This document shows, in pieces, positions 5 to 14,447 of a stretch of DNA of 32,000 nt. This DNA is from Nostoc sp. PCC 7120 = FACHB-418 (lineage in GTDB: Bacteria > Cyanobacteriota > Cyanobacteriia > Cyanobacteriales > Nostocaceae): the NCBI RefSeq assembly GCF_000009705.1, contig NC_003240.1, positions 150,001 to 182,000 on the forward strand, read 5' to 3'. Numbering within the stretch: the first letter of the stretch is position 1; every line of letters begins with the position of its first letter. A program made the translations under genes and the position numbers. A model generated the notes under the pieces. The model saw nothing but the letters and a program-made list of their open reading frames with translations. It had not been told where the DNA came from and did no database searches.

Positions 5-3000
5 ATGTACCGTGAAATGATTGCCGAAGCAGCATTTCAAAATCAAATTGCAGTTGACCTTTTCAAGAGTGCCAAAAAACCTGAAATTGAAATTATTCGC
101 AACAACAGTCGGATTCTTCACCGTGAAGTCAACTATATTAAGGATAAGAAGAAAGATGTCTATATTGACAATACAATTCAACCGACAGGATATTCTCCTG
201 TTGAATTACTAATTGCTCAAACCAATCAGTATTTTGAAAAAGCTCGCCTCGAATCGCGTGAAATCGTTCAATTTCAAGCTTTATTTGAAGAGGTTGAATT
301 TTCTAACGAACAGCGATTAAAAGCTACCCTCATCAAAAAAGAATTCGACAAATCATTCAACCGAGCAAGTGAGCTATCTAAACAAAAAGAAACTGAAAAA
401 GGGCCATCTGTAAAAATTACCCTTGCTAATGGTAATCAAGTAAGTATAACTAATCTTCTACAGTATGATAATGAATTTATCTGGAAAGCTAATACAATTA
501 CGATAAAACTATCAGAAATATCCGAAGATAAGCGCAATAATAACCGTCCGCATAAATATTTAGTTTATGCTCAAATTAACGATGAAACTGAGAATGGTAA
601 ACCCAAGTTTAGAAAATTAGGGACACTGGCGAGGGAGCAAGAAAATAAACTCGAAGAGATAGTAATTACACTTGGGGAGGAAGTAAAATCTAACAAAATA
701 TCATTCCAACCTGAACTAAGCGAAGGTCAAATTAAACTTCTTTACCAAAAAGCTTACCAGATAGCAGAGGAATTTTATAATTCGCTCCCAGAAGACCAAA
801 AGCTAACAATGGCAGCTGCCACCTGGACGGTATCCACTACTCGTGAGAGTAATAATGATAAAAGTAGCGATCGCCAAAATAAAGTTTCTAATTTCGCCTT
901 TGCTGCCTTTCCTCAAGAGATTATCAGTCAGTTAGATACACTCAAGTTTACCGAGTTTAGTATCACTGGGTTTGACCGGAATAGTGAGTTTTTTAATGAA
1001 AATCAACCTCAGAGTATTCGATTTAATCTAGCTGAAGATGGAAAAAGCGTAATTGAAATCCAGAATCAAGAGGGTAATTACGAATCATTCGGAAATATTG
1101 AACAAAGTAACGCCCGGCTACCAATTGGTACTATTGCTATTGGCAGTATTGAAAAAGGTGAAGTATACACCACCTCTGTTACAACCAAAGTACCTGGACT
1201 ACCAGAACTAACTTTCAAAGTAGGCGAAGTTAATAAGTTTGGAAATTCCCAAAGGTTTAATAATGAACCTGTAATGTTAACAATCGAAAAGGTTGACCTG
1301 ATTCGGGAAGACTATACTATCTATCTTCAAAATGGCAATAAACCTGAAAAACTAGGCAATATTGATAAAGAATCAATCAAAGAAGGTATTACCCAAGGCT
1401 GGCTAGCAGAAAAGCCTGGGAATGGGCAACAGTTACATCTTAAAATTCAAACTATCATCACTGGACAAAATGCCTATGCTATAGCAGAGACATCTCAGAG
1501 CAATCTGTTACGAATTAATATTACGAATCCAAAATACAAGAAACAGGAGATTAACAACCAAGCATTTCAAGAAACTTTAGTTCGTGCATTTGATAAAAAG
1601 CACATTTATATTGCTAAAATTGGCGACCAATCACTCGGTATTATTGGTCAGCATAATGAACGTCTTGAAGCTGATTTAAATAAAGGAAATATACAAAAAC
1701 AGTGGCAAAGGAAAGAAACTAGCACTGTACAAAAATTAATTGATGCAGGTATTATTCGCCCAAACCAACAACGAACCACTATCCCTGTACAGATTACCAG
1801 TAATGAAAGTACTTGTAAAATAATAATTGATCCAGAAACAGTACAATATCCCGACAAATGGGTTAAACGCAGTCAGCTTATAAGTAATGAAAAGCCTGTC
1901 AGAGACGAGCAGCAAGAAAAACGCAACCAAATACTCGATAAAATTAACGAACGCCCTACAATCATGTTCCAAGATAAAGAGCAAAAATTAGTAGGGCTTT
2001 TAGGATTAGCAGTTGATGAAAATATAGCCGAAAAAACCAAAAAGTATCTCGAAAAAGTAGGAGTATCATACGAACAGCTTCCTAGATCACAAGCTCGGTT
2101 AGAAGCCAAAAAAGGAATGACTGTATTCGTACTTGATGAAAGTACCATCAGTGACGAATTAAGACAAACCTTTATTAACCGTGCTGGTGGTCATATCAAA
2201 AGTGCAGATACACCCTCACAAACCACTCCAATCATTCCCCAACAAACTGTATATTTTTATAATCCAAATCAACAATATACTTCCCCCAATGCATCGCTCT
2301 TAGAAACTAAAGAAGCTTTTGGATTAGTAGTTCCCGCACAAAACGCGGTCGCTGTAGCCACTTGGTTAGAATCGAAATCTACTGAAAACGACTATTTTAT
2401 TGAGAGTAACACAGCTACATTTATTTTCAATAAAAATGATATTAGTGAGGAAATTAATGAAGAATTAAATACTTTGCTTGGAGATGCTATTAATATCGCT
2501 GAAGTTGAGGGTTTTGACCGCTACGAACAGCTTAGTGCAGAGTTAAATGAAAAAGTCGCAACTGAAGGTAGTCTTTTAAAATTCAACCAAATTCCAGAAA
2601 ATAGTGAGTACCAAAAAGCTCTAAAAGCACTTCCTAACCGTCCAAGAGAACTCAATCAAGAAGATTCTCCAGTACCAATTATTCCTGCTAAAGCTTTACC
2701 AGAAAAGAATATAACTAATATTCAATTAAATACTAACGCCACAGTTGCAGGAATTTCACAAATCTATCAAAACGCGGTTGAGATACAAGTAGTAAAGAAT
2801 ACAAAATCAGAAGCTAAGAATCAACCAATATTACTACCCAACTCGCGTCAAGCCGATCCAACTAAAGCTATTGAAATCTTGGGTAAGGTAAACGAAAAAA
2901 AAGTAGACCAATTGCGATCGCATCTTGAAACCCACCTCAAACCTATACTTGAAAATGACAAATCTAACTATGCACCACTGAGACAAGTCGCCTGGGTCGG

Positions 3001-5665
3001 TGCAAAATGGGATTTGAAGGAGAAAGACTTCAAGCCAGGGATACAGGACGACAGGTTGATGGAACTTGTCAAACAAGTATATCCTGACGCTGATATTGTG
3101 CTGGTAACTTATTCCGAGAACCCCGGTGCTGGCATCAACTACCACCGCGATGACTCCTACGCCGCGACGGAAGCCCGCAGCATTAATATCAGAAATTCTG
3201 ACTGGGGCTATCGTGCTGCTAAGGAACGAATGGCATGGACTAGGGAAGAGAATCAGGACGCACCATACCAAGAGTTTAAACTTGAGTCGGGTACAGTAAC
3301 CCGCTTTAACTGCAAAAACGAACACGCTGCACTGAATACTGAGGCTGGCAGATGGTCTATCAACATCTGGTCAATTAAAAATGATCTGGGCAGAGAAAAC
3401 AGCGTTCGCCAGAAATTTGAAAACTTCCTCACCTCAAACCAACCTCCGCGTGCGGTAGTCCAAAGCAACAACGACCTTACCATCAAAGCTAACGAGTGGA
3501 CACCAGGGGGAGAAATTAAAGTAGAGCGCAGTTATACCAGCCTCAGAGAAGTCACCCAAAACATACCCTCACACCCTTCAAACCAACCAACTGTCGAAGA
3601 AATTATCGCCATTGCCAATTCCACTGCGGCACGCGCTGCTAATCCTCAGATTCCAGACAACCCGACTATATCTGGCAAACCAGTACCAATGGTTTATACG
3701 CTGCATCTGCACGGCGAAGCTGCCACAGTACCAGTTAACACAACCATCGATGCTATGCGCGGACACGGTAGAATACACACTACCAGAGGTGTAGACTACC
3801 AAAAAACTTATGGTATCAATGAGGGAGATATTGCGATCGCCCAAGGTAAAAACGGCGAGCAAGTTGCTTTTCGGGTAGGTAAGCAATACAAAATTACCAC
3901 CCAAATGATTCAAGACCCAAGTTACCAGCAAGCCTGGGCGAGATGGGAGAAGCATTCCACAAAAGAACTTACCCAAACTCAAGCGAGTAAGAGTCAGGTA
4001 TATGGCTTATTCATGGAGCCACTAGGAGATTATGTCAATGGCAAAATTGTTCCGTTCCCAACTAACCAAAAACAACCTGCAACTCCAGTAAATATCAGCC
4101 CCGACTCTAAAGATGGGCTGGGAGTAGCACTCAGCCTTGCCACTGCTCTCGCCAAAGAACAAGGCAAGCTGCAAAACGATTACCAAGTTTCAGTCAAAAA
4201 TAATCCAGAAGCTCCTGCTGGACAGTATGGAATAGAAACCCATGTCCAAAAACCTCAAGGGGTAGCATACGCATCCGCCGAACACGCATTTAATCACCAA
4301 AAGCAGTTGCATCCATCAGTTGATGAATACCAGCTAATGGTAGAAGTGCTTCAGGCTAAACTCGAACAACACCCCCGGCTGACTGAGGCGATCGCCAAAC
4401 GCGGGGGAGTCAATTGGCTAGAGAACTGTACGAGCATAAGTAATGCCCAAGATAAAAAGTGGGAGGGTGAGGGTAAAGAATCCGCATTTATTCAAGCCTT
4501 TAGCGAAGCGTATATGTATGTAGTTGCAAAATCACAACAAACTACAGTACAAACCCAGCACAACAAGTCCCAACAGACTGCTCTGCGGCCCACAAATCCA
4601 CTGTCCCAACTCGAACCTATAAACGCCGCCGTCGCTGAACACATGAAAAAAGACATTGCGATGGCCCAAATAGCTACCCAGTTTATCGGTAAATCAGCTG
4701 CACCCCTCGGTACACCTTCAAGCACACGAAATTACGAGCAAGCATGGGGAGAGCGCGCCAACACAGGAAATTACTCAAAAGAAGACATCATTATGGTGTC
4801 CGGATCTGGCCCGTGGCGCGGAGTAACAAGCGAGGAAATTGCCCAAACATTTGAAAATCACTATAAACCCTTACTTAATAAGGCAATAGCAGCGAAAAGC
4901 TCTTTTATAGTTGGAAACGCACAAGGAACTGACCAATTAGTTCACAATTATCTTCAAGAAAAAGGGTACAGAGTAGAACAAACTTCCCAAGGATACGCAG
5001 TATTTAATCCTGTAGAAAACACCAAAGTTAGTAGCGATATTATTTCTACTAATACACAAGTATCAGATAACTCATTAATTTCTAAAAACAAGAGCATTTT
5101 TTCATCACAACAAAGCCAAGAACCAAATATTGACCAAGCACTCGCATCATCTGCTCAACCCAATATGCAGCACGTTGGAGCAATGGATAGCATTATCGAG
5201 CGGATGAAAGCTAATACAGTGCAAAATCTCCAAGACTGGTATATGGCAGCTGAAAAACTCGGTAAATCAGACACATATCTCAATAGAATTCAAGAGATAA
5301 CTAATTTATACATTCAAGAAAATATTAGTCTTGAGAATGCTTTTAAGGCAATGGAACAAGACATTAAAGAATTAGAAAAAGTTAATGAGATGACCAGTTT
5401 TGCTCAACGTGTAGTTAAGACAATTGGACAAGAGGATATTAATGGCATTATGTCAGTCCAAACAGAAAAATATCAGATTGCTACTCAAACTCAAACCCAA
5501 ACTTATTTAGTTAAAGATAAAAAGGATAATATCTTGTTATATGTCAAACAAGGAAAAACTCAAGTAAGTAACATTAGTGATGAAACATTACAAGATTTTC
5601 AATTTATGAGCGATCGCATCAATAATGCACTCAAAGATGTCAAAAAAGATTTAGTAGAAAGGTAA
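5..5665 (+). CDS. Giant (at least 1886 aa) multidomain 'polyvalent' protein of a mobile element. The true 5' end probably lies upstream of the window.
   Basis: Uninterrupted 5.66 kb ORF. The frame is already open at nt 2-4, before the first ATG. It contains several recognisable enzymatic motif sets (listed as sub-features) separated by Q/N/S/T-rich linkers. All antisense ORFs inside it are short shadow ORFs. Confidence 0.85.
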   Translation: MYREMIAEAAFQNQIAVDLFKSAKKPEIEIIRNNSRILHREVNYIKDKKKDVYIDNTIQPTGYSPVELLIAQTNQYFEKARLESREIVQFQALFEEVEFSNEQRLKATLIKKEFDKSFNRASELSKQKETEKGPSVKITLANGNQVSITNLLQYDNEFIWKANTITIKLSEISEDKRNNNRPHKYLVYAQINDETENGKPKFRKLGTLAREQENKLEEIVITLGEEVKSNKISFQPELSEGQIKLLYQKAYQIAEEFYNSLPEDQKLTMAAATWTVSTTRESNNDKSSDRQNKVSNFAFAAFPQEIISQLDTLKFTEFSITGFDRNSEFFNENQPQSIRFNLAEDGKSVIEIQNQEGNYESFGNIEQSNARLPIGTIAIGSIEKGEVYTTSVTTKVPGLPELTFKVGEVNKFGNSQRFNNEPVMLTIEKVDLIREDYTIYLQNGNKPEKLGNIDKESIKEGITQGWLAEKPGNGQQLHLKIQTIITGQNAYAIAETSQSNLLRINITNPKYKKQEINNQAFQETLVRAFDKKHIYIAKIGDQSLGIIGQHNERLEADLNKGNIQKQWQRKETSTVQKLIDAGIIRPNQQRTTIPVQITSNESTCKIIIDPETVQYPDKWVKRSQLISNEKPVRDEQQEKRNQILDKINERPTIMFQDKEQKLVGLLGLAVDENIAEKTKKYLEKVGVSYEQLPRSQARLEAKKGMTVFVLDESTISDELRQTFINRAGGHIKSADTPSQTTPIIPQQTVYFYNPNQQYTSPNASLLETKEAFGLVVPAQNAVAVATWLESKSTENDYFIESNTATFIFNKNDISEEINEELNTLLGDAINIAEVEGFDRYEQLSAELNEKVATEGSLLKFNQIPENSEYQKALKALPNRPRELNQEDSPVPIIPAKALPEKNITNIQLNTNATVAGISQIYQNAVEIQVVKNTKSEAKNQPILLPNSRQADPTKAIEILGKVNEKKVDQLRSHLETHLKPILENDKSNYAPLRQVAWVGAKWDLKEKDFKPGIQDDRLMELVKQVYPDADIVLVTYSENPGAGINYHRDDSYAATEARSINIRNSDWGYRAAKERMAWTREENQDAPYQEFKLESGTVTRFNCKNEHAALNTEAGRWSINIWSIKNDLGRENSVRQKFENFLTSNQPPRAVVQSNNDLTIKANEWTPGGEIKVERSYTSLREVTQNIPSHPSNQPTVEEIIAIANSTAARAANPQIPDNPTISGKPVPMVYTLHLHGEAATVPVNTTIDAMRGHGRIHTTRGVDYQKTYGINEGDIAIAQGKNGEQVAFRVGKQYKITTQMIQDPSYQQAWARWEKHSTKELTQTQASKSQVYGLFMEPLGDYVNGKIVPFPTNQKQPATPVNISPDSKDGLGVALSLATALAKEQGKLQNDYQVSVKNNPEAPAGQYGIETHVQKPQGVAYASAEHAFNHQKQLHPSVDEYQLMVEVLQAKLEQHPRLTEAIAKRGGVNWLENCTSISNAQDKKWEGEGKESAFIQAFSEAYMYVVAKSQQTTVQTQHNKSQQTALRPTNPLSQLEPINAAVAEHMKKDIAMAQIATQFIGKSAAPLGTPSSTRNYEQAWGERANTGNYSKEDIIMVSGSGPWRGVTSEEIAQTFENHYKPLLNKAIAAKSSFIVGNAQGTDQLVHNYLQEKGYRVEQTSQGYAVFNPVENTKVSSDIISTNTQVSDNSLISKNKSIFSSQQSQEPNIDQALASSAQPNMQHVGAMDSIIERMKANTVQNLQDWYMAAEKLGKSDTYLNRIQEITNLYIQENISLENAFKAMEQDIKELEKVNEMTSFAQRVVKTIGQEDINGIMSVQTEKYQIATQTQTQTYLVKDKKDNILLYVKQGKTQVSNISDETLQDFQFMSDRINNALKDVKKDLVER
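2950..3390 (+). other. AlkB-like 2OG-Fe(II) dioxygenase domain within the giant ORF
   Basis: The facial triad and 2OG-binding motif have typical spacing: INYHRDD (H1047/D1049, nt 3143-3151), NEHAA (H1107, nt 3323) and RWSINIW (R1116, nt 3350). This resembles the AlkB HxD...H...RxxxxxR pattern. Confidence 0.65.
4100..4520 (+). other. NADAR/YbiA-like domain within the giant ORF
   Basis: YASAEHAFNHQK (E1426 at nt 4280), followed by MVEVLQAKLEQHPRLTEAIAKRGGVNWLEN and DKKWEGEG. This resembles the NADAR signature (Y.S.EH...Q..K / KF.Q.P.L...L..TG...L.E / D..WG.G). Recognised by eye only. Confidence 0.5.
4785..4990 (+). other. Possible Rossmann-like SLOG/DprA/YpsA-type module within the giant ORF
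   Basis: IIMVSGSGPWRG ... FIVGNAQGTDQLVHNYL resembles the glycine-rich loop plus GxAxGxD motif of SLOG-superfamily domains. The assignment is weak. Confidence 0.3.
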
Positions 5666-10152: not shown

Positions 10153-10460
10153 AATATTATTTACAAAGTAACTAAACTTTGTTGTGTTAGGTTAATGTCA
10201 ATCTAAATTTTTAAGTTGTAAACAAAAATCAATAAGTTAATGAAATAAAAAAATCAGCAACTATATTGCTCAATAAAATTTTCCTAATTTATTTTGAATA
10301 AACTACTTTGAGTATGCAACCTCTCGCTCAAAAAGCCAAGCAACAAAATTCCACATTAAAACAACATTTGTTGATATGTAAATTAGTCATAAATTTTATG
10401 TCGTTTAAAGTAACTTGACTTTCAAAAAGGGCATTATGATATTTTGATCGGAAATAATCT

Positions 10461-11420
10461 ATGAGTGAAGTACGAGCTGATTATGATGGTGCTTGGAAGG
10501 AAGGTGTAGAACAATATTTTGAAGCGTTTCTTGCATTTTTCTTTCCAGAGATTCAAGCAGAAATTGATTGGGAACGAGGCTATGATTTTCTCGATCAAGA
10601 ATTGCAACAATTGATAAGAGAATCTGAAATTGGTAAACAATTTGTCGATAAACTAATCAAAGTTTGGCTAAAAGATGGAAAGGAAACTTGGTTGCTGATT
10701 CACCTGGAAATCCAAAGTCAAGTAGATACGAACTTCCCTAAACGGATGTTTTCTTACCACTACAGAATCTTTGACCGTTATAACCAAGAAGTTGTTAGCT
10801 TGGCAATTCTGGGGGATAATCAAGCAAACTGGCGACCGCAAGAATATAGTTATGGTCGTTGGGGATGTCACTTGAGTCTTCAGTTTCCCATTGTAAAACT
10901 ACTGGACTATGAATCTCGTTGGTCAGAATTAGAACAAAGTGATAGTCCTTTTGCTGTACTGGTGATGGCGCACCTGCGGACACAAGCGACAACTCAAGAT
11001 TTAGCAGGCCGATTGCAGTGGAAGTTGAGCTTAATTAAACGAATGTATGAGTTAGGCTATAGTAGAGACAAAATCCAGCAAATCTTCCGGTTGCTAGATA
11101 GATTAATGACTCTACCGCCAGAGTTAGACTTAAATTTCAAAGCAGAATTAGAGCGTTTTGAGGCTGAACAAGAAATGACATACATGACAAGTATAGAACG
11201 CATAGGTATAGCAGAAGCTACCCAGAAATATATTGCTCAAATCCTAACAATTCGATTTAAAGATATTCCTACTGAATTAGTAGAAAAATTAAATAAATTA
11301 TATGACATTGAGTTATTGAATCAATTGTTAGAAAAAGCAGTAACTACAGGTTCAATATCTGAGTTTGAGCAACAATTAAGTCAGGAAGATACAAACACAG
11401 ATAATAAAACCAGCAGATAA
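10461..11420 (+). CDS. Rpn/YhgA-like PD-(D/E)XK recombination-promoting nuclease / putative transposase with a DUF4351-like C-terminal domain
   Basis: The N-terminus (DYDGAWKEGVEQYFEAFLAFFFPEI...DWERGYDFLDQELQQL) and WLLIHLEIQSQ (the ExQ variant of ExK) are typical of the abundant cyanobacterial Rpn-type family. The C-terminal MTYMTSIERIG... matches the DUF4351-type tail. Confidence 0.85.
   Translation: MSEVRADYDGAWKEGVEQYFEAFLAFFFPEIQAEIDWERGYDFLDQELQQLIRESEIGKQFVDKLIKVWLKDGKETWLLIHLEIQSQVDTNFPKRMFSYHYRIFDRYNQEVVSLAILGDNQANWRPQEYSYGRWGCHLSLQFPIVKLLDYESRWSELEQSDSPFAVLVMAHLRTQATTQDLAGRLQWKLSLIKRMYELGYSRDKIQQIFRLLDRLMTLPPELDLNFKAELERFEAEQEMTYMTSIERIGIAEATQKYIAQILTIRFKDIPTELVEKLNKLYDIELLNQLLEKAVTTGSISEFEQQLSQEDTNTDNKTSR
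11087..11206 (+). repeat. Direct repeat copy A (inside the Rpn-like gene, spanning its internal ATG at 11175)
   Basis: Hand alignment with 11464-11583 gives 113 of 120 identical positions. Confidence 0.9.
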
Positions 11421-11458
11421 AACGCTTCTCTAGTCGGAGTAAAGGCAAAGTCATTTAA

Positions 11459-11539
11459 TTACTCCAGTTGCTAGATAGATTAATGACTCTACCGCCGGAG
11501 TTAGACTTAAATTTTAAAGCCGAATTAGAGCGTTTTTAG
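11459..11539 (+). pseudogene. Remnant of a second Rpn-like gene (only the linker before the C-terminal domain remains), closed by an in-frame TAG
   Basis: It translates to LLQLLDRLMTLPPELDLNFKAELERF*, versus FRLLDRLMTLPPELDLNFKAELERFEAEQE in the intact gene. The TAG at 11537-11539 replaces GAG, and no upstream nuclease domain is present. Confidence 0.75.
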
Positions 11540-11583
11540 GCTGAACAAGAAATGACATACATGACTAGCATAGAACGCATAGG
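11464..11583 (+). repeat. Direct repeat copy B
   Basis: See copy A. The offset is 377 bp. Identity falls sharply after position 11583 and rises again near the 3' end (tctgagtttgRgcaacaattaagtca). Confidence 0.9.
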
Positions 11584-11779
11584 CAGAGCGCAGGCTATCC
11601 AGGAGTCGATCGCTGAAGTTCTAGAAGCTAGATTTAATCAAGTTACCCTTGAATTGATTGAGCAAGTAAATAAAATTTATGAGCTTGATAAACTCAAGCA
11701 GTTGTTGAGACGGGCTAGTATTACAGAGTCAATTTCTGAGTTTGGGCAACAATTAAGTCAAGAAAATACAGATACATAG
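11552..11779 (+). CDS. Stand-alone DUF4351-like small protein (C-terminal domain of an Rpn-like protein expressed on its own)
   Basis: 75-aa ORF starting at the ATG exactly homologous to the internal M239 of the neighbouring Rpn-like gene (MTYMTSIERIG in both). Protein-level similarity continues through to ISEFxQQLSQE. Confidence 0.6.
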   Translation: MTYMTSIERIGRAQAIQESIAEVLEARFNQVTLELIEQVNKIYELDKLKQLLRRASITESISEFGQQLSQENTDT

Positions 11780-11847
11780 TTTTAAAGTTGCACGGAACGC
11801 TGGCCGTATAGTCATAAATTCTAACTACCAGCTAACTTTGTTTGCTT

Positions 11848-12165
11848 TCAAATACAAATTAATTCTCCAATCAAATCCGCTGCTCGTTCTCCATATTTTT
11901 GTTGAATAGCGTCCCTGTGCGGCAAGCAATCTTCACTTAAAAAGTCGCGGATAAATAGAGAAAAATTAAATCCTCTTTTCGAGTCCACATATTCTGCTAA
12001 TTCAATATTAAACAACGATTTAAATTCATCCTCTCTTTGTTTGAGTGCTGAATATTTAGTTAAATTGTTGGCTTGGAAGATTGGTTCAACTGCTTGATTA
12101 AACAGTTTTTCCATTAAGATATCTTTCATATTTTCTTCTATATTTTTGTACCAAATTTTACTCAC
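11848..12165 (-). CDS. Hypothetical protein downstream of the replication gene
   Basis: 105-aa ORF, co-directional with and 87 nt downstream of the 12252-14447 ORF. No motif recognised. Confidence 0.5.
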   Translation of the reverse strand: MSKIWYKNIEENMKDILMEKLFNQAVEPIFQANNLTKYSALKQREDEFKSLFNIELAEYVDSKRGFNFSLFIRDFLSEDCLPHRDAIQQKYGERAADLIGELICI

Positions 12166-12251: not shown

Positions 12252-14447
12252 TCATCTTTCCCAAAATTTTTCGCTCTCCAACTCCAAGGAAAATGGTAAA
12301 CATCCAGGATTGGCAGCCGCCCACTCGTTAGCTTCTGCAATTAAAGTTTCGTTACCCGAATCGAGGTAGAATTGCATTTTGGCACGTTGCTCTAAGCGAT
12401 CGCGTTCCTGAGTGCTGAGAATATGTCTCGTGATTACGCAGTATTGGCGCACCTTAGTCCTAGCTTGGGTTAAAGCCATTAACCGTAGTTTTGTCGCTCG
12501 CTTGAGTTCCTCGATGCGGTAGGAAACATCAGCAATCTCTTCACCAACAGATGCACTCTGCCGCCCATTGTTGGCAATTTCCTGTGGTGGTTCTGGTGCA
12601 ACCGCAGCAGGTATCGAAACTACACCCTGCCCATTATCTTCTGTGTTAGATAAGTTTTGATTATCAACTCTTGACGACGTGCCGAGGCTAGAAGGGTATA
12701 TAAAATCCTGATGAAAACTGAATTCATTTGGGTGTAAAATGTCTGTATGAACTGAATTCTCTAATTGATTGCTGGTTTTATTTAAATTAATTTCAGCAGT
12801 ATTAGAAGAATTTATGAATTCAAGATTTTCCACAGGCTGGACGACAGCTGAGTCTTGCTGAGAAACATCGGGTTGTCCAACTACCCCTGCTGACTCCAGC
12901 CCTTGGGGGGCTGTAGCAGCAGGAAGTAAACAGAAAACCTTCATATAGGGAAAATGCCCGTAATTATCGATTTTATTAGGGGTTCTAACATTTTGAATTG
13001 AAAATGAGTTTTGAAAACTATTAAGTTGCCCGTTCTCTATTGATTGATAAGGGTTTGAGCTATTTTCTGCCCAAGGGTCTAAAATATAGCGTGTGGGATG
13101 CCACAAATGTAAGTGCTTTTGTAGTGTCTCTTGAGAGATAGTTTTGTTAAAGCGGCGTTTATACTCAGCACGTATAGCTTTTGCCCGTTCAGTAGCACCT
13201 GCTGGTAATCCACTATCCCACTCTATTGCTCTTACTACTATCTGGATGCGTCGTTGGGCTTGTTGACTGCGTTCCCAGTTCTGTTGGTGGCGACGGTCAA
13301 ATGGAATTACGTTATCTTTAGGTTGATCAATGCTACTAACACCTGCTATGGCTTCTGCAAATGTGTTGGTGAATGTACCCAACAGCCGTTCGGGATAACT
13401 AACGTAGGCACTGTACCATTTGTTACGAATCGTGCATTCTACCCAATGCCGTACTCTAGCTTCGATTTCATGTTTGTGTCGGCAATATTGCTTATAGCCA
13501 GGGGCGTTAATTGCGGTGGAGAGGCAAAATTCGACTAATTTATCGCCTCTTAAGTCTAGAAAGACGATTCCGTAGCCTGCAAAGATTTGTAGGAGGGTGT
13601 TTGTTTGTCCTTGTCCTGTCCAACCGATCGCAATTGTTTCTTCCCAGTTGGCACGCCACTGTGCAGCATCAGCAGACTCTTGCTTACGATATCTCTCCTG
13701 TGCAATTTGTTTTTTGGCCTTGTTTGCTACCCGTTTTAATTTGGTTAAATCTTGCCGACTGGCCGCACGATCGCAATAGTCAAGGAAGATAGAAACGGAA
13801 TCGCTAATAGCTTGTAAGTCATCATCAAGTAAAAATGACCCACTACCCGGTTGCATGGGACAACGGATGGCTTTGTAGTTGGTTATTTGTTTGGCACTAT
13901 ATGGTTTAGTATTGGGAAAGATTTCTAGGTGTCCTTGGCGCAAGATAAAGCCTGCATTTCTCAAGGTAATCTCTAGAGCGCAGGCTAAGGCAAAGGTAGG
14001 CAGGTGAGATGCAAAGTTTAAAATCAAGTGATAGCCACCACTAAAGCTGGACTGGAGAATGACAATATCAACTATGCCAATGTCCTCTAGTGCCGCTTTG
14101 ATGCGATTTATAGATTCAATGTTATGGTAGTCGCCAAAGAAGTCTAAATCGATAGTGGCGTAACGGGTTGTGTTGTCAAAGCGCAGACCTACTAATTTTG
14201 ACTTATCTTGGTGCAGCTTCCACAGTTGGGAGGGTTGCAGGTAATAATCGATAGTGCGCCATGCTGGTTTTGCACCTTCTACTAAAGAAGGGGCAACTAT
14301 CGCCCCAAATGGATGCCAAAAACGCTCTACGTAGCGTTTACCCACAGATTCTGAGGGTAAATGGGGTTTGATTTTCTTTTTTGAAAGCTGTGAAAGACTT
14401 AATGGGGGCTTGTTATCAACATCTGCCCCGAAATCTTCTTGGAACAT
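12252..14447 (-). CDS. Plasmid replication protein with an N-terminal archaeo-eukaryotic primase (AEP) primase-polymerase-like domain
   Basis: RYATIDLDFF (DxD) followed about 45 aa later by QSSFSGGYHLILNF, the sGG.H motif of Prim-Pol domains. A long low-complexity S/N/Q linker and a helical C-terminal region follow. Upstream is a structured, repeat-bearing non-coding region. Confidence 0.6.
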   Translation of the reverse strand: MFQEDFGADVDNKPPLSLSQLSKKKIKPHLPSESVGKRYVERFWHPFGAIVAPSLVEGAKPAWRTIDYYLQPSQLWKLHQDKSKLVGLRFDNTTRYATIDLDFFGDYHNIESINRIKAALEDIGIVDIVILQSSFSGGYHLILNFASHLPTFALACALEITLRNAGFILRQGHLEIFPNTKPYSAKQITNYKAIRCPMQPGSGSFLLDDDLQAISDSVSIFLDYCDRAASRQDLTKLKRVANKAKKQIAQERYRKQESADAAQWRANWEETIAIGWTGQGQTNTLLQIFAGYGIVFLDLRGDKLVEFCLSTAINAPGYKQYCRHKHEIEARVRHWVECTIRNKWYSAYVSYPERLLGTFTNTFAEAIAGVSSIDQPKDNVIPFDRRHQQNWERSQQAQRRIQIVVRAIEWDSGLPAGATERAKAIRAEYKRRFNKTISQETLQKHLHLWHPTRYILDPWAENSSNPYQSIENGQLNSFQNSFSIQNVRTPNKIDNYGHFPYMKVFCLLPAATAPQGLESAGVVGQPDVSQQDSAVVQPVENLEFINSSNTAEINLNKTSNQLENSVHTDILHPNEFSFHQDFIYPSSLGTSSRVDNQNLSNTEDNGQGVVSIPAAVAPEPPQEIANNGRQSASVGEEIADVSYRIEELKRATKLRLMALTQARTKVRQYCVITRHILSTQERDRLEQRAKMQFYLDSGNETLIAEANEWAAANPGCLPFSLELESEKFWER
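12539..12548 (+). repeat. Copy of the decamer CTTCACCAAC (inside the 3' part of the rep gene)
   Basis: Exact match to the decamers at 14662-14671 and 14841-14850. Confidence 0.6.

Follow-up and report, generated by a model that had tools for sequence, protein, structure and literature searches.

A 32,000-nt stretch of DNA from Nostoc sp. PCC 7120 (contig NC_003240.1, positions 150,001 to 182,000; hereafter the window) contains, at 10461-11779, a gene for a 319-aa Rpn-type protein followed on the same strand by a 75-aa open reading frame (ORF) that encodes another version of the C-terminal tail of that protein. The pair is probably a toxin/antitoxin-like module with two tails, in which the downstream ORF (the orphan) is kept as a non-cognate tail gene and the conserved DNA bordering the tails acts as recombining arms. 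Judged by comparison of plasmid loci, the orphan is a separate old tail allele and not a duplicate of the tail of the gene beside it, because the synonymous divergence (dS) between the two tails is ~0.9 whilst that between the body of the window gene and that of a close syntenic relative, locus L001, is 0.065. The same locus is found in three states, with a type 1 tail only, with a type 2 tail only or, as in the window, with type 1 in the gene and a free-standing type 2.

Two tail alleles at one plasmid locus

The features of the locus, in window coordinates and with the evidence for each in brackets, are the following.

10415-10443, plus strand: weak candidate sigma-70-like promoter, TTGACT-17-GATATT, 18 nt 5' of the main start codon (consensus scan)
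10461-11420, plus strand: Rpn-type gene, putative RpnL, 319 aa, nuclease-like body and type 1 tail (ORF, homologues, AlphaFold2 model)
10461-11174, plus strand: body, residues 1-238, PD-(D/E)XK-like alpha/beta domain and then helices (alignment, hhalign, weak Foldseek matches, ratio of nonsynonymous to synonymous divergence, dN/dS)
11087-11206, plus strand: block 1, the conserved 5' homology arm, including Met216, a Shine-Dalgarno (SD)-like GAGG and Met239 (113/120 identical to block 2, 115/120 to L001)
11175-11420, plus strand: in-gene tail, putative RpnS, 81 aa from Met239, type 1 (invariance of Met239, identity to L006, model)
11345-11399, plus strand: 3' homology arm, copy 1 (55-nt direct repeat, 85% identical to 11722-11776)
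11396-11463, plus strand: junction filler, made of the last 25 nt of the main ORF and a 43-nt spacer (two-tail modules only)
11464-11583, plus strand: block 2, second copy of the 5' arm (with the Met216 equivalent at ATG 11483, in a frame that TAG 11537-11539 ends)
11552-11779, plus strand: orphan, rpnSs-like free-standing tail gene, 75 aa, type 2 (ORF, identity to L001-L005, orthologous orphans, AlphaFold2 model)
11722-11776, plus strand: 3' homology arm, copy 2 (direct repeat of copy 1, crossover points)
11780-11847, plus strand: downstream flank in common with single-tail syntenic loci (92-99% identical in L001-L020, L038 and L045)
11848-12165, minus strand: convergent 105-aa gene beyond the downstream flank (ORF)

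Blocks 1 and 2 align without gaps at an offset of 377 bp, and a match of 120 nt at 94% identity cannot be chance. A repeat finder returns this region as part of a 269-nt direct repeat (11061-11329 and 11438-11706, 77% identical) and, in addition, the 55-nt repeat at the 3' ends, both with the same spacing of 377 bp. ATG 11175 is the in-frame Met239 of the main ORF (MTYMTSIERIG) and ATG 11552 is the homologous start in the second copy. An earlier note, made from the letters of the window alone, had described the 120-bp repeat, the internal ATG, the TAG and the 75-aa ORF, and all of these positions and counts hold. Its picture of a conserved-variable-conserved mosaic stands as well, with identities of ~94% in the block, 63% in the core (97/153, with L001 as the type 2 reference) and 85-88% at the 3' end, but its remark that the diverged parts stay similar as protein is only partly right, the protein identity there (33/63, 52%) lying below that of the DNA (~63%). 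Between the variable parts of the two copies dS is 0.94 and dN/dS is 0.36, and past the first stop codon come 43 nt that show no relation to what lies past the second (19/60 matches).

The nearest homologues over the first 238 residues (P0003, P0005 and P0006, 234-235/238 identical) have the tail of the downstream ORF and not the in-gene tail of the window. Synteny with the window extends to both sides of the locus in the contigs coding P0005 and P0006 (L001-L005), and these carry a single 313-aa gene, which ends 69 bp before the convergent 105-aa gene. Compared with L001, the body in the window is identical at 616/626 positions (98.4%) and the variable part of the orphan at 149/153, whereas the variable part of the in-gene tail reaches 97/153, and the whole orphan is 97-98% identical to the in-gene tails of L001-L005, which are of type 2. 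At 16 or more further syntenic loci (L006-L021, L038 and L045) a single 313-aa gene has a type 1 tail, to which window positions 11207-11395 are up to 98.9% identical (L006), and there the core leads into a 3' end resembling the second copy in the window and then into the downstream flank of the window. The two tail types have diverged by a dS of 0.84-0.94, against 0.065-0.26 for the gene bodies that carry them. The earlier note had taken the orphan for a diverged copy of the C-terminal domain of its own neighbour and had thought of recombination between paralogues; the orphan is instead the other allele, carried in-gene by the closest syntenic loci, and the partners are alleles of one plasmid locus.

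It would seem very improbable that the 3' end of the gene was simply duplicated in tandem and then diverged in place, even though the copies are in register at 377 bp, their ends are highly similar and the rpnSs copies of Escherichia coli have been inferred to originate from their own upstream gene (PMC10400941). The core dS of 0.94 stands against a body dS of 0.065 to the L001 orthologue, each core has a counterpart of 97-99% identity in an in-gene tail at the same locus on other plasmids, and the sequences after the two stops are unrelated; simple tandem duplication was rejected on these grounds of divergence.

Body and tail of the window gene have different nearest relatives, the body being closest to L001 and tail 1 closest to L006, the body of which is only 94% identical. 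Furthermore the type 1 single-tail alleles switch from copy-1-like to copy-2-like sequence within the 3' arm at differing points, late in L006, L007 and L017 and early in L010, L015 and L021. A deletion between the blocks of a window-like module would yield exactly the type 2 gene, and a deletion between the two 3' arms would yield exactly the type 1 313-aa gene. The mismatched relatives of body and tail, the varying crossover points and these deletions, which predict both single-tail genes, point to recombination in the conserved arms, and we would anticipate that the arms (the 120-bp block at the 5' side and ~55 bp at the 3' side) interconvert the three states of the locus. A comparable arrangement is that of the orphan C-terminal cassettes of rhs and cdiA, where a conserved arm is followed by a variable C-terminus with displaced alternatives 3' of it, exchanged by homologous recombination in the arm. 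The likeness is one of analogy only, as the cassette there is a toxin with a separate immunity gene and the proteins are unrelated to Rpn, whereas the variable cassette in the window is a presumed antitoxin and oligomerisation tail common to toxin and antitoxin.

Insertion of a 377-bp foreign cassette into a type 2 gene was also considered and dropped as sole explanation, tail 1 being an allele of the same locus and the module with the filler being found in other contexts.

Some of the compared loci have been altered in other ways. In L038 (3699-4796, Nostoc linckia NIES-25 plasmid2) the rpn gene is split within the conserved block by an insertion of ~1.1 kb that is annotated as two "putative transposase" genes, and the same strain has a solo type 2 tail gene adjoining an integrase on plasmid3 (L087, 2519-2752). 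Copies that are 91-96% identical and have internal deletions are found in L045 (Hydrococcus rivularis NIES-593, pleurocapsalean) and in L054, a metagenome-assembled genome (MAG) labelled "Acetobacteraceae", and could be due to recent horizontal transfer or to contamination in assembly or binning.

An Rpn-type body and the start of its tail

A search with the 319-aa protein returned 2017 homologues, chiefly from Nostocales and chiefly of 313 aa, which under NCBI naming belong to the Rpn family. In an alignment of 34 homologues D9, D63, E83, Q85 and R95 are invariant, and these match D11, D63, E82, Q84 and R94 of RpnA, the mutation of which abolishes or changes activity (Kingston et al., J Bacteriol 2017, PMC5350276). 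An hhalign comparison with RpnE of E. coli is weak (E = 0.09) and places D63, E83, Q85 and R95 on D63, E82, Q84 and R94 of RpnE. Curated profiles are matched by the window protein below their cutoffs, with 19.7 bits for PF04754 (Transposase_31; cutoff 21, E = 7e-4) and 21.2 bits for TIGR01784 (cutoff 52.1), as is PF14261 (DUF4351) by the in-gene tail, with 14.6 bits against a cutoff of 25; the orphan alone has no match to PF14261. Of the 34 relatives, 27 match Transposase_31 at E <= 0.01 (best E 4.9e-5) and 10 match DUF4351 (best E 2.2e-5). The AlphaFold2 model of the whole protein has an alpha/beta core and a mean predicted local distance difference test (pLDDT) score of 85.5, and its best Foldseek matches in the PDB are the PD-(D/E)XK nucleases Cap4, NucS/EndoMS, EcoO109I and Kpn2I, all of them weak (E >= 0.03), whilst a search of the family profile against the sequences of solved structures gave noise only. 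The body is under strong constraint, with a dN/dS of 0.04-0.15. That the gene is a remote relative of the Rpn-type nucleases, much as the earlier note had proposed, is supported by the conserved catalytic constellation and by the profile matches of its relatives; PADLOC returned no meaningful match to a defence system.

Met239 is invariant in the 34 homologues, down to ~50% identity, and in the model it falls within a low-confidence hinge (residues 237-243) that is followed by helices at 244-266, 271-278, 283-295 and 299-317. The AlphaFold2 model of the orphan (pLDDT 83) likewise has four helices, a long first one (residues 3-28) and three shorter ones. Amino-acid variability jumps at codon 240, and the in-gene tail evolves at a dN/dS of 0.17-0.60 compared with the 0.04-0.15 of the body. 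Repeats of four residues are found 11-13 residues past the Met in the relatives P0103, P0113, P0115, L046, L047 and L065, and such repeats lie 8-20 residues past the Met in RpnS (PMC10400941); the two tails of the window have none.

Free-standing tail ORFs that start at the Met239 equivalent are found in Nostocales, Anaerolineae and Gemmatales, and in Verrucomicrobia the extra tail likewise has the conserved Met motif. A word-indexed protein search with the 75-aa orphan returned seven short proteins only and an exhaustive profile search of representatives was used instead, in which 74 of the best 150 representatives are of 110 aa or less. Thirty of these 74 start at the Met-x-Tyr motif of Met239. 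A further 27 have their start at the Met216 equivalent, "M-x-L-P", ~23 residues before it, as does the orphan in Chlorogloeopsis sp. ULAP01. Solo tails recur in two forms, a Met239-type of ~70-77 aa and a nearly invariant "M-x-L-P" type of ~95-105 aa (examples of solo tails are P0137, P0142, P0146, P0157, P0163, P0190, P0201 and P0220, and position 11483 in the window), and the Met216-equivalent start may be a second natural start or the longest ORF picked by gene callers. In the solo gene L087 of N. linckia NIES-25 plasmid3 the homology starts only ~18 nt 5' of the ATG, at GAGGCTGAACAA. Another group of proteins in the representative library (P0131, P0133, P0134, P0158, P0200 and P0205) has two or three tail domains in tandem without a nuclease body, and these look like fused arrays of the DUF4351-type tail.

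The rpn genes of E. coli have two products, a toxic nuclease (RpnL) and an antitoxin made of the tail only (RpnS), which is translated from an internal start and binds RpnL (Zhong et al., PNAS 2023, PMC10400941); this is the work to which the earlier note refers. Neutralisation there depends on the tail, as RpnAS fails against RpnBL and one extra repeat abolishes it; RpnS also occurs as a separate gene with a DUF4351 annotation (ypaA/rpnESs 3' of rpnE, and rpnCSs), stand-alone rpnS copies can disappear through deletion or through fusion to the body, and RpnL itself has been suggested to trigger recombination (PMC10400941). A gene within a gene with a spare tail downstream has thus already been described for E. 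coli, and the window is a further instance.

By analogy the 319-aa gene would encode a PD-(D/E)XK-type nuclease body joined through the Met239 hinge to a helical tail, and the tail would probably also be made alone from Met239, as RpnS, and would restrain the presumably toxic full-length nuclease (RpnL) through tail-tail binding. The downstream 75-aa ORF would be a free-standing tail gene of the rpnSs type and of allelic type 2. Most likely it would provide a second, non-cognate tail, acting as an antitoxin against the type 2 RpnL of related plasmids or serving as a stored alternative tail.

The likeness to RpnA-E and RpnP2 of E. coli extends over the putative PD-(D/E)XK-type body with its D...D...E-x-Q...R residues, the hinge Met and the small hypervariable helical tail, and with the L/S systems in general there are in common the repeats (in relatives of the window protein), the plasmid location and defence-island-like settings. 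The window protein differs in being very remote from these systems in sequence. Its tails are also longer, 75-81 aa with four predicted helices against ~48 aa with three helices in RpnA-S, which is a three-helix bundle dimerising through its long first helix (PDB 7TH0). As in rpnE-ypaA and rpnC-rpnCSs, a small ORF lies directly 3' on the same strand and starts at a Met homologous to the internal start. As in rpnE-ypaA, furthermore, the orphan differs in its first helix and the duplicated DNA takes in a stretch just 5' of the ATG, of 88 nt in the window, 47 nt in L026-type loci and 12 nt in K-12, where ypaA starts 12 nt past the rpnE stop. YpaA has one extra KLEG repeat compared with the RpnE tail, to which it is 82% identical (46/56 aligned residues, global alignment). 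Unlike the orphan of E. coli, which clusters with its own upstream tail, that of the window is an old allele, 59% identical to the in-gene tail at a dS of 0.94.

In addition to the window, independent pairs of in-gene and free-standing tails are found in L031, L046, L047, L052 and rpnE/ypaA, and in all six the orphan differs from the in-gene tail. Three of the pairs differ by substitution in the core (identities of 59% in the window, 51% in L031 and 62% in L052) and three in the number of repeats (+2 in L046, -4 in L047 and +1 in E. coli). Given the tail specificity published for E. coli, one would not expect the nuclease next to a heterotypic orphan to be neutralised by it.

Two ParA-like genes lie beside the Rpn-type gene in what is a plasmid maintenance region, and it could be argued that the gene encodes a recombination or maintenance factor of the plasmid rather than a toxin and antitoxin, the tail being a domain for DNA binding or oligomerisation, with alleles that determine the specificity for partner or site. 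The distance of the protein from characterised Rpn, the tail model without a specific structural match and the relatedness of RpnS to motifs of the helix-turn-helix (HTH) type mentioned from HHpred (PMC10400941) would fit such a role. It is nonetheless improbable, as the residues needed for toxicity and cleavage by RpnA are invariant here, and hypervariable tails, four-residue repeats, solo tail genes and the defence-island-like context of locus L088 are hallmarks of Rpn L/S.

Recurrence of the module and selection on the free-standing tail

The two-tail module, junction filler included, is found again at six or more further loci from five strains or samples.

L094, Chlorogloeopsis sp. ULAP01, 95.1% identical to the window over 6.3 kb: orphan intact, without the TAG, annotated as 98 aa
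L026, Nostoc desertorum MAG: orphan intact, 75 aa
L088/L089, metagenome assemblies: orphan intact, 81 aa
L090, metagenome assembly: orphan intact, 77 aa
L019, Nostoc sp. UHCC 0252: orphan frameshifted
L086, Nostoc sp. NIES-3756 plasmid: orphan eroded just past the ATG

The 98-aa ORF of ULAP01 begins at the equivalent of ATG 11483 (Met216). The junction filler (11396-11463) is not present in any single-tail locus; it is 80-82% identical in L019 and L026 and ~93% identical in L086, it is present in L088, L090 and L094, and a search for a native source of the 43-nt spacer found only other two-tail modules. No flanking DNA is in common between the window and L019 or L026, and the neighbouring genes of L086 and L088 differ from those of the window.

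Among the intact orphans (window, L094, L026, L088/L089 and L090), which have diverged by 12-31% at synonymous sites, orphan-to-orphan dN/dS is 0.18-0.47, with Fisher p = 0.008-0.04 for several pairs, and because of this ratio the orphan is seen to evolve as a constrained coding gene. In the same genomes the ratio is 0.17-0.60 for the in-gene type 1 tails and 0.04-0.15 for the bodies. The earlier note had reckoned with a decaying pseudogene without conservation elsewhere, which is not what was found, the module recurring across strains and contexts with an orphan dN/dS below 1.

Decay of some orphans is nevertheless seen, and the orphan in the window could itself be a non-functional relic, left behind as an old 3' end when recombination swapped the tail and now decaying. 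The frameshift in L019 and the erosion past the ATG in L086 would agree with this, as would the TAG in the upstream frame and the lost Pro-Pro motif in the lineage of the window, the lack of a promoter-like site or strong ribosome-binding site upstream and the annotation of ypaA as a pseudogene in RefSeq. Such a relic seems rather unlikely, given that the ORF has stayed intact in the window, L094, L026, L088/L089 and L090 over the synonymous divergence given above and that its dN/dS is not ~1. Between the window and ULAP01, moreover, the orphans differ at 5/228 positions, which is no denser than in the ~95%-identical flanks, the protein library is rich in stand-alone tail genes, and the YpaA protein has been detected in E. 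coli (PMC10400941).

Several observations, the two decayed orphans among them, weigh against the two-tail module with a retained orphan that we favour. The window protein stays below the curated hidden Markov model (HMM) cutoffs in every match, its alignment to RpnE is as weak as noted above, and a Foldseek search of the tail model against the PDB did not retrieve RpnA-S (7TH0), the best E being 2.2. No sigma-70-like promoter is found in the block, promoter-like sites in the region are no more frequent than in shuffled sequence and the SD-like GAGG, which sits 11 nt from the ATG, is TAGG in front of the orphan in the window; a terminator scan found none after the main stop codon. The dip in synonymous diversity at codons 231-245 is mild (0.13 against a mean of ~0.23) and one at codons 151-165 is equally deep, so it was not counted as evidence. 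The conserved "VPPEL" has become "VTLEL" in the orphan of the window, the pairs behind the dN/dS values are non-independent, and exchange with in-gene tails could import a signal of purifying selection into the orphans. Lastly, the tandem form could either be ancestral or have been assembled from two alleles.

A more specific proposal is that the tail is a cassette-switching system, in which the two arms would allow a plasmid to keep an alternative tail allele as a separate gene and to exchange it with the one in the nuclease gene. The heterotypic orphan would then have been selected for neutralising the type 2 nuclease of competing sister plasmids (anti-addiction or cross-immunity), much as orphan immunity genes do. 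The hints in its favour are that all independent pairs examined are heterotypic and that the same G-to-T change is found 5' of the orphan start in two separate lineages, and at present we regard it as unlikely.

The wider reading of a two-tail module takes the antitoxin-within-toxin architecture of Rpn, free-standing tail gene included, to filamentous cyanobacteria, where a remote branch of the family is carried on large conjugative plasmids, and the natural allelic series (tail 1; tail 2; tail 1 with an orphan tail 2) shows tail exchange through conserved arms. What sets the window apart is the origin and divergence of the orphan, an old allele that sister plasmids carry in-gene. The two alleles are well suited for testing the specificity of the tails, for example tail 2 against a tail 1 nuclease, and for experiments on plasmid competition and phage defence; should they turn out to act like their E. 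coli counterparts, the lesson would not be a fundamentally new one.

Three small differences around the orphan may be recorded. Four of the five window-ULAP01 differences lie within 12 nt (11645-11656) and turn VPPGL into VTLEL; they resemble a short patch of conversion, or mutations in a cluster, at an otherwise conserved Pro-Pro motif. The G-to-T change is at window position 11537 and at ~4036 of L026, 12 nt 5' of the orphan ATG, and converts GAG to TAG and GAGG to TAGG, whilst GAG is retained in the closest relatives, ULAP01/L094 of the window and L088/L090 of L026; between L026 and L088 it is the sole difference in a 90-nt spacer, and either parallel mutation or exchange between the lineages would account for its presence in both. 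At its 5' end block 2 of the window and of ULAP01 has 41 bp (11464-11504) that are missing from L019, L026, L086, L088 and L090. The "ACT" found on both sides of these 41 bp is suggestive of a deletion by microhomology in the other lineage or, alternatively, of gene conversion that lengthened the block here.

Plasmid setting and neighbouring genes

The window is part of a conserved conjugative-plasmid backbone of Nostocales, in which the two ParA-like genes stand directly 5' of the module and a response regulator, an FtsK/SpoIIIE-type ATPase and an M23 peptidase are also encoded; all 14 of the matching plasmids in PLSDB are typed as conjugative, and no RNA family of Rfam was found in the window. 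In L088 (1-4671) the module is surrounded by an Eco57I-type restriction-modification gene, a tyrosine integrase and a pair formed by an AAA_15/AAA_21 ATPase and DUF4276, a neighbourhood that resembles a defence island.

Two large ORFs of the window, one of 1886 aa (5-5665, plus strand) and one of 731 aa (12252-14447, minus strand), have no match in Pfam, NCBIfam or PADLOC. Both are conserved in the syntenic plasmids, and the 731-aa gene, which adjoins the partition-like genes, may code for a protein of replication or primase type in this plasmid family.

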